DNA from: a virus
Taxonomy: Duplodnaviria; Heunggongvirae; Uroviricota; Caudoviricetes
Virus record (IMG/VR): IMGVR_UViG_2877291059_000002
Length of the DNA: 14,584 bases
Direction: 5' to 3' (one strand)
This document shows, in pieces, positions 13,077 to 13,126 of the stretch. Every line of letters begins with the position of its first letter. Positions within the stretch are counted from its first letter, which is position 1. The notes beneath the pieces were generated by a model. That model had not been told where the DNA came from. It saw only the letters and a list, made by a program, of their open reading frames with translations, and ran no database searches. Made by a program: the position numbers and the translations under genes.

Positions 13077-13111
13077 ACCAATCACCAATCACCAATCACC
13101 AATCACCAATC
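13077..13111. repeat. Five perfect tandem copies of the heptamer ACCAATC immediately upstream of the Rha ribosome-binding site
   Basis: ACCAATC x5 at 13077-13111, followed directly by AAGGAGG at 13112-13118 and ATG at 13127. Confidence 0.9.
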
Positions 13112-13126
13112 AAGGAGGCTGCCATT

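Follow-up and report, generated by a model that had tools for sequence, protein, structure and literature searches.

A length-variable heptamer repeat in the predicted C4-target leader of a frameshifted Rha antirepressor gene in Shigella dysenteriae prophage remnants

Five perfect copies of the heptamer ACCAATC stand in the leader of a Rha-type antirepressor gene within the window, by which we mean the whole 14,584-nt stretch of DNA that was analysed. The same array is present at different copy numbers in near-identical Shigella dysenteriae loci, in all of which the antirepressor gene is frameshifted. We regard the array as probably a lineage-specific, hypermutable microsatellite that arose by slippage in the leader targeted by the antisense RNA C4 and has been drifting neutrally under relaxed constraint, rather than a regulatory switch. 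The evidence comes from the array itself, from the RNA module in which it lies, from the comparison of leaders among related loci and from the state of the downstream gene.

The repeat array and its copy number in S. dysenteriae

The variable-number tandem repeat occupies 13077..13111 on the plus strand and runs straight into AAGGAGG (13112-13118), after which comes the ATG at 13127-13129. Tandem Repeats Finder placed it at 13077-13112 with a period of 7, 5.1 copies, 100% matches and a score of 72, which together with direct reading of the sequence bears out the initial annotation of five ACCAATC units abutting AAGGAGG and the ATG at 13127. With a 21-nt probe of three units and up to two mismatches allowed, this array was the sole match in the window, and 200 dinucleotide-preserving shuffles gave an expectation by chance of 0.00 matches. 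The array is contained in a 39-nt tract without G (13075-13113), 15 nucleotides of which are C.

Exact look-up of the 138-aa Rha product encoded downstream returned contigs of one lineage only, among them CP000034.1, the genome of S. dysenteriae Sd197. Four units are found in CP026878 (CP026878.1), five in the window, in ADUT01000048 (ADUT01000048.1) and in three Logan assemblies, seven in strain Sd197 (CP000034) and eleven in both CP026774 (CP026774.1) and the IMG/VR locus L019. Nine S. dysenteriae loci were thus sampled, and short-read assemblies could under-report long arrays among them. In the 2.2 kb of flanking sequence compared, 1,400 nt on the left side and 800 nt on the right, 0-3 substitutions separate these loci; the right flank of L019 differs further only through a 1-nt indel in a run of C that offsets the gapless comparison. 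The array is by far the fastest-changing site among the S. dysenteriae loci compared. It had been proposed from the window alone that the repeat is prone to slippage, with a comparison of copy number across related prophages as the check. The copy number does differ, being 4, 5, 7 or 11 in near-identical S. dysenteriae loci and 2 in E. coli, in agreement with that proposal.

The RNA module around the array

The locus is an immunity module of the P1/Gifsy-1 type, comprising a promoter, IsrK, C4, the leader and a Rha/AnrP antirepressor gene, and it was assigned to the C4/IsrK antirepressor-control family because of the RNA-model scores and the complementarity of the targets. The initial annotation had overlooked both RNAs, which match Rfam models and define the locus. 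A sigma-70-like promoter of the isrK-C4-rha transcript is predicted at 12829..12857 on the plus strand (TTGACT, 17 nt, TATATT; 10/12 consensus matches), ending about 7 nt before the Rfam isrK start. All of the RNA elements that follow are likewise on the plus strand. The IsrK sRNA (12864..12939) matches RF01394 with 61.8 bits against a gathering score of 50, and the Rfam family named 'c4-a1b1' (RF03163) overlaps isrK. Within IsrK lie upstream copies of the two C4 targets, namely b1 (UUGCUAC, 12889-12895), a copy of the b' target, and a1 (CAAUCGAGG, 12904-12912), a copy of the a' target; an intrinsic terminator with its T run is predicted at 12919-12934.

The C4-type antisense RNA (12964..13051) matches RF01695 over its full length, 1-87, with 76.4 bits against a gathering score of 45, and is the equivalent of STnc1160/orf45' in Gifsy-1. 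Its elements were named and placed after the GenBank record of APSE-7, which gives the name a' to the loop of C4 hairpin 2 and b' to the single-stranded segment 3' of that hairpin. By this placement a' is UUCCCUUGAUUG at 13005-13016 and b' is GUAGCAA at 13023-13029. The predicted fold of C4, with an MFE of -42.6 kcal/mol, leaves the loop exposed. Downstream of C4, the candidate target b2 of b' (UUGCUAC, a 7-bp complement) is located at 13056..13062, and the candidate target a2 of the a' loop at 13107..13118, where it consists of CAAUC from the last unit of the array followed by the Shine-Dalgarno sequence (SD) AAGGAGG, with a 9-bp core at 13107-13115.

The RNA parts in the window are intact and allele-matched throughout (IsrK a1/b1, C4 a'/b' and b2/a2), and the b1 allele agrees with the b' allele both in the window and in the E. 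coli locus L001. The pair of Rfam isrK and C4 matches is also present in SfV, P88, APSE-7, several Stx phages and a P1-like Punavirus. The loop of C4 hairpin 1 (12988-12993) reads CUUCAG in S. dysenteriae (the window and L019) versus a stable CUUCGG tetraloop in all E. coli relatives, a lineage-specific G-to-A change in a structural hairpin of C4. On the minus strand a promoter-like match at 13124-13153 (TTGAGA, 18 nt, CATAAT; 10/12) overlaps the Rha start; it would yield an antisense transcript across the repeat and is probably a chance match.

Pairing of C4 with the last unit of the array

The a' core, CCUUGAUUG, is the exact complement of CAAUCAAGG, which is made up of CAAUC from the last unit and the first four bases of the SD, and b' is complementary to the UUGCUAC at 13056-13062. 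Computed duplex energies are -14.5 kcal/mol for a'-a2 and -9.7 kcal/mol for b'-b2; the corresponding duplexes with IsrK come to -13.9 kcal/mol (a'-a1) and -14.0 kcal/mol (b'-b1). Every unit repeats CAAUC, the half of the C4 loop target that confers specificity, and an internal unit offers 6 bp to the C4 loop with a computed energy of -5.4 kcal/mol. The earlier suggestion that the units are iterated sites for a regulator gains a concrete basis from this recurrence, with the amendments that the regulator would be an RNA and that the full site is present only in the last unit, fused to the SD.

Covariation was analysed in a gap-free alignment of 21 divergent loci. Compensatory changes were found at 8 of the 9 a'-a2 pairs, for which 97.4% of cells were paired, and at 5 of the 7 b'-b2 pairs, giving 13/16 pairs for the two helices together. 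Across both helices 98.6% of cells were paired, as opposed to 21-42% when the partner was slid by 1-3 columns, and none of 500 shuffles reached the observed pairing values. Over 72 distinct allele combinations, cognate a'-a2 duplexes averaged -18.9 kcal/mol versus -11.2 kcal/mol for non-cognate ones, and cognate b'-b2 duplexes -15.6 versus -11.4 kcal/mol. Close relatives carry three fully compensatory pairs of b' core and b2 alleles (AGC/GCU, GAG/CUC and CCU/AGG). This covariation is strong evidence that C4 would pair with a2 across the SD.

In folds predicted with ViennaRNA (MFE and partition function) the SD is sequestered at every copy number n, paired with CCUCCU at 13062-13067, and the stability differs little, with an MFE of -22.8 kcal/mol at n=2 and -20.5 kcal/mol at n=11; the SD-sequestering hairpin is a prediction, and the consensus fold of 30 leaders is weak at -1.6 kcal/mol. 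The array is left unpaired in the predicted fold. By the same calculations GGUGGUU (13070-13076) is the predicted partner of AAUCACC in the array. The spacing between b2 and a2, 44 nt with two units, grows to 58-107 nt with 4-11 units.

Leaders of related loci

The C4 hairpin is shared by 26 IMG/VR loci, of which 25 have a two-unit leader and the remaining one is L019. Such leaders combine one degenerate unit (ATCAATC, ATTAATC or CTCAATC) with one perfect unit. All E. coli complete-genome matches among the 60 listed have the two-unit form, with a span of 280 nt versus 301 nt in the window, and no tandem repeat of three or more copies was detected in the leaders of 88 distinct C4 loci from IMG/VR. 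In 71 allele combinations the start codon follows the end of C4 at a distance of 54-66 nt, most often 63 nt; against these the 84-nt leader of the window is the only outlier, and two units would give it exactly 63 nt. The closest E. coli phage allele, that of phi191 (L009), which shares the b' allele of the window, differs from it by one base in the first unit, ATCAATC versus ACCAATC. Among the loci compared, the expanded array appears restricted to S. dysenteriae. Working phages appear to be under a constraint on leader length and b2-a2 spacing from which S. dysenteriae has escaped.

Searches for the bare repeat gave a different type of match. A scan of genome contigs for three bare ACCAATC units found at least 120 unrelated matches in cyanobacteria, Bacteroidota and others, none of which had the C4 loop sequence. 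The three-unit probe found 14 loci in IMG/VR, with L019 as the only one in a C4/Rha context, and a metagenome scan with the left flank returned 0 matches. One metagenome contig (L168, Ga0163150_10121178, 1129-1149) reads (ACCAATC)x3-AAGGAGG-ATG; it has no C4 or isrK nearby and was taken as a coincidence.

The orf45-like leader ORF and its reading frame

Two in-frame ATGs, at 12968 and 12980 (12968..12982, plus strand), fall in the 5' strand of C4 and match by position the start of orf45 in the isrK-orf45-anrP locus of Salmonella Gifsy-1. The orf45 AUGs of Gifsy-1, A107 and 119-121, are 12 nt apart (Hershko-Shalev et al. 2016, PMC4825925), and both the spacing and the distance from the promoter are the same in the window. 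In Gifsy-1 orf45 is translated, according to Western blots of an SPA-tagged product, it is needed for the translation of anrP, and its stop overlaps the anrP start as AUGA (PMC4825925). As ATG 12968 corresponds to the translated orf45 start of Gifsy-1, the copy number of the array would set the frame in which orf45 ribosomes reach Rha.

The array lies within the 3' part of the orf45-like ORF, so that each added unit shifts this ORF by 7 nt relative to Rha. The claims made earlier about this frame stand: ATG 12968 is in frame with Rha at five copies (ORF 12968..13543, 191 aa), the frame depends on the copy number, and the leader is altered by it in both its length and the frame of its upstream ATG. 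By computation orf45 is fused in frame to Rha only at n=2, 5, 8 and 11; with n=3, 6 or 9 its stop codon falls 29 nt into Rha, and with n=1, 4, 7 or 10 it is read out of frame as far as a stop 244 nt into Rha. The observed copy numbers occupy two of the three frame classes (4 and 7; 5 and 11), and hence no single frame is maintained. A copy number held at 2 modulo 3, as suggested by the values 2, 5 and 11, is ruled out by the genomes with 4 and 7 copies.

Across 73 loci orf45 ends at an upstream stop in 31 and is in frame with the gene in 29; in 10 it reaches past the first 60 nt of the gene before stopping, and in 3 its end overlaps the start codon. Since the end is unconserved, the orf45 frame seems to be of little importance in the family. 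An N-terminally extended Rha was likewise rejected as a conserved product, on the grounds of this scatter and of the TAA that the commonest E. coli allele has in its first unit. In L001 (6381-7154, E. coli RM10042) and other O157-type genomes, PGAP starts Rha at the second orf45-like ATG inside C4, and its 'internal stop' pseudogene flag is the TAA of the ATTAATC leader unit; the ORF from the SD-linked ATG is intact (215 aa), and the pseudogene call on the O157-type Rha is probably a systematic mis-annotation.

The antirepressor gene and the prophage remnant

The Rha/AnrP-type antirepressor gene (13127..13543, plus strand; Pfam Phage_pRha PF09669, E=3e-32) is cut short at 138 aa, owing to a -1 frameshift in a run of six C at 13501-13506, and the remainder of the gene, 77 codons, continues in another frame at 13540-13773. 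Rha homologues of E. coli and phages have 215 aa, and in its shortened ORF the window departs from C4 modules that encode a functional antirepressor. At the lesion the intact relative L016 reads TACCCCCTCTCG, and the window and the S. dysenteriae loci with the 138-aa protein read TACCCCCCTCG, a deletion of 1 nt. Over the C run itself (window 13500-13507) the sequence is CCCCCTCTCG in L016, CCCCCCTCG in the window and 7 other S. dysenteriae loci (-1) and CCCCCTCG in L019 (-2). The -1 lesion is thus present in 8/8 loci with the exact 138-aa protein, and with the different frameshift of L019 at the same spot the gene is frameshifted in 9/9 loci. The C run is either a second length-variable site in the gene or, in L019, a homopolymer sequencing error. 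The 138-aa product keeps the whole Phage_pRha domain and could conceivably have residual function. Rha has a strong SD and an ATG of its own, which are used by gene callers and are independent of the frame of the repeat.

The surrounding phage remnant is about 7.5 kb long. The homologous region is bounded by IS fragments on its left, and on its right a transposase follows a truncated kilR. A CI-like repressor (237 aa) is intact, and no lytic genes were identified in the window.

Origin of the array and alternative explanations

We infer a slipped-strand origin following a T-to-C change, relaxed selection and neutrality as the steps that led to the array. The canonical leader would have supplied the starting material, as it already contains two similar heptamers, A[T/C][T/C]AATC and then ACCAATC, the second of which forms the candidate a2 together with the SD. 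A single T-to-C change in the first unit would create two perfect units and is a plausible seed for slippage, and slipped-strand mispairing could then have expanded the two to 4-11 copies. In the expanded arrays the last unit alone keeps the full 9-12 bp antisense site over the SD. The added units represent partial sites of 6 bp; they also stretch the otherwise tightly conserved b2-a2 spacing, and each re-frames orf45 by 7 nt relative to Rha. Relaxed selection on leader geometry would let such an array persist and vary. That selection would be relaxed is suggested by the frameshifted Rha and the IS-bounded remnant in every S. dysenteriae genome examined, and because the antirepressor gene is already broken the repeat is probably a neutral by-product. 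Neutrality would also agree with the two frame classes among the observed copy numbers, with the unconserved end of orf45 and with the small effect of copy number on the predicted SD sequestration. Against it stand the intact, allele-matched RNA parts of the window, the intact CI-like repressor and restriction endonuclease, and the complete Phage_pRha domain of the 138-aa product. The expansion may have come before or after the frameshift.

It had been suggested from the window that the repeat acts as a switch, and in its fullest form this would be a phase-variable translational switch, in which gain or loss of units moves orf45 among three outcomes and toggles antirepressor output stochastically. 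The outcomes would be an orf45-Rha fusion, a stop 29 nt inside Rha that favours re-initiation, and an out-of-frame read-through of 244 nt that occludes the Rha start. The translation of orf45 in Gifsy-1 and the dependence of anrP on it (PMC4825925), the retention of both orf45 AUGs in the window, the computed consequences for the frame and the variation in copy number between near-clonal genomes would all fit such a switch. We nevertheless consider it unlikely, since Rha is frameshifted in all nine S. dysenteriae loci within an IS-bounded remnant, has its own strong SD and ATG, and is approached in two of the three frame classes; moreover the position of the orf45 end relative to the downstream start is unconserved in 73 loci, and no expansion was seen at any examined locus with an intact gene. 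It is similarly improbable that the array tunes the antisense control itself, with the extra CAAUCA units engaging the C4 a' loop in cis, either as decoys or to nucleate pairing, or with the longer b2-a2 spacing weakening bipartite C4 binding and so partly de-repressing or hyper-repressing the SD. The tight conservation elsewhere of the 54-66 nt leader and of the b2-a2 spacing does argue that geometry matters, and internal units do offer their 6 bp to the loop. However, these partial sites are weak (-5.4 versus -14.5 kcal/mol at the true site), there is no comparative sign of selection, and the regulated gene is a pseudogene in S. dysenteriae. A broader proposal combines such effects into a contingency element set on an RNA-RNA immunity circuit, where slippage would multiply the seed half of the target, stretch the spacing, re-frame orf45 and stochastically reset the hold of C4 and IsrK; we think this very unlikely.

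In P1, C4 acts by repressing translation, upon which Rho-dependent polarity sets in, and RNA that is rich in C and poor in G loads Rho. The unstructured, G-free and C-rich tract, 35-77 nt long depending on copy number, might act independently of C4 pairing, either by loading Rho (a rut site) or by offering ribosomes a standby site, and so alter polarity or translation of the leader. The 39-nt tract of the window, with its 15 C and no G, and the unpaired state of the array in the predicted fold agree with this idea, which is an argument from composition; with n=4-5 the tract does not reach the usual length of a rut site, the regulated gene is again a pseudogene, and we hold such a role to be quite doubtful. 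There is scarcely any likelihood that the units are DNA iterons, tandem sites at which a protein, for instance a repressor or a replication protein, would bind the DNA. Direct repeats beside a regulatory gene are what would speak for iterons, but the repeats are absent from homologous loci outside S. dysenteriae (88 C4 loci and the E. coli relatives), their copy number is unstable, and their sequence is fully accounted for by RNA-level elements. Nor do we give much credence to sequencing or assembly artefacts as the source of the copy-number differences. When short reads are assembled by de Bruijn graphs, repeats that exceed the k-mer can be collapsed; however, the values 4, 5, 7 and 11 come from separate large contigs of 0.2-4.4 Mb, five copies recur in four independent assemblies, and a sequencing read is longer than any of the arrays (28-77 bp). 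An Hfq ARN motif and a CsrA site were dismissed from the sequence of the unit, which is not in a 3-nt register and lacks GGA.

Comparison with known immunity circuits and variable repeats

The immI operon of P1/P7 consists of the c4 antisense RNA, icd and ant (Citron & Schuster 1990, as cited in PMC8201110 and PMC7313666). The locus of the window resembles it in that one transcript carries a C4-family RNA and, after it, an antirepressor gene, that a' and b' are complementary to upstream a1/b1 and downstream a2/b2 elements with the downstream target overlapping the ribosome-binding site of the next ORF, and that specificity alleles covary, as in P1/P7 heteroimmunity. It differs in that C4 is followed first by the ORF of the Rha-type antirepressor and not by icd, that this antirepressor is frameshifted, and that the leader contains the heptamer array, which is absent from every other C4 locus examined outside S. 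dysenteriae.

With Gifsy-1 the window shares the order of promoter, IsrK with its terminator, a stable RNA of about 80 nt (STnc1160/orf45') and antirepressor, the two AUGs 12 nt apart at about 107 nt from the transcription start, and the pairing of IsrK with the C4/orf45 region. Unlike in Gifsy-1, which is without a repeat array, orf45 of the window runs in frame into Rha at n=5, the sister strains with n=4 and n=7 have the stop 244 nt inside Rha, and there is no AUGA overlap. Mutational analysis in Gifsy-1 established the pairs G28-C162 and G31-C159, and C4 processing has been shown only for the homologue STnc1160 of that prophage (PMC4825925). The two mutational pairs correspond to b1-b' of the window, so that this helix is experimentally validated in a homologue. 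The Gifsy-1 study compares IsrK/orf45/STnc1160 with the P4 CI RNA and leaves phage P1 unmentioned (PMC4825925). IsrK/orf45/STnc1160 of Gifsy-1 and a1b1/C4/a2b2 of P1 are the same RNA circuit, and the present analysis joins their two separate literatures. The covariation identifies IsrK as the a1/b1 element and STnc1160 as C4, with a2 covering the SD of the antirepressor gene. On this identification IsrK may activate by titrating C4 off the SD, a step that is absent from the published Gifsy-1 model.

Contingency loci with tetra-, penta- and heptanucleotide repeats are found in Haemophilus, Neisseria and Helicobacter. The S. dysenteriae array is like them in being a perfect short repeat in a 5' leader or ORF, with copy-number polymorphism between near-clonal genomes and consequences for the reading frame. 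In contingency loci the repeat is located in a promoter spacer or in the ORF of a surface protein, unlike the window, where it lies in the target of an antisense RNA; the gene under its control is in addition already inactivated (9/9 loci frameshifted) and has its own start site. If the array were a contingency element all the same, it would be the first case of microsatellite-driven phase variation of prophage immunity acting via an sRNA target site, and any function of this type would amount to a new mode of action of simple sequence repeats, namely the editing of an sRNA target site.

If the array is neutral, it represents a clean natural experiment, in which the leader of a widespread antisense immunity module, 54-66 nt long elsewhere, would tolerate expansion only where the antirepressor is already dead. 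Expansion solely beside a dead antirepressor points to selection, in working phages, on the length of the leader and the spacing of the targets. With four alleles among near-identical genomes the array is also a potential high-resolution length marker for S. dysenteriae type 1. It has a 7-bp unit and several alleles among close strains in common with the VNTR markers used in Shigella MLVA (e.g. PMC2806262). Unlike those markers, the ACCAATC unit was not found in the searchable literature, as a Shigella VNTR or otherwise described, and it is not known in any typing scheme.

Other features of the window

Upstream of the module lies a BsuBI/PstI endonuclease gene (11294-12247, 317 aa) that looks intact. 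The Eco57I-type methylase gene at 9775-11046 (plus strand) has a longest ORF of 423 aa, from GTG, versus 489 aa (1470 nt) in the E. coli relative L001, and it may be truncated at its 5' end.

Large, near-perfect tandem duplications are present in IS-like sequence at 3048-6395, a region bracketed by inverted 40-bp repeats at 3048-3128 and 6315-6395. They comprise 406 bp x2 at 3577-4391 (99%), 194 bp x1.9 at 5123-5483 (100%), 184 bp x2 at 5895-6262 (100%) and 126 bp x2 at 3147-3397 (88%), and may reflect IS copies that are nested or duplicated, or else an error of assembly. The end of the 406-bp duplication is overlapped by the STnc100 sRNA, which matches its model (Rfam RF02076) over the full length with 159.6 bits (4345-4550, minus strand). 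At 289-1811 on the minus strand, a Mom-family protein (245 aa) adjoins a Gin/Cin-like resolvase/invertase (197 aa); this pair beside the IS cluster looks like the remnant of a different, Mu- or P1-like phage.
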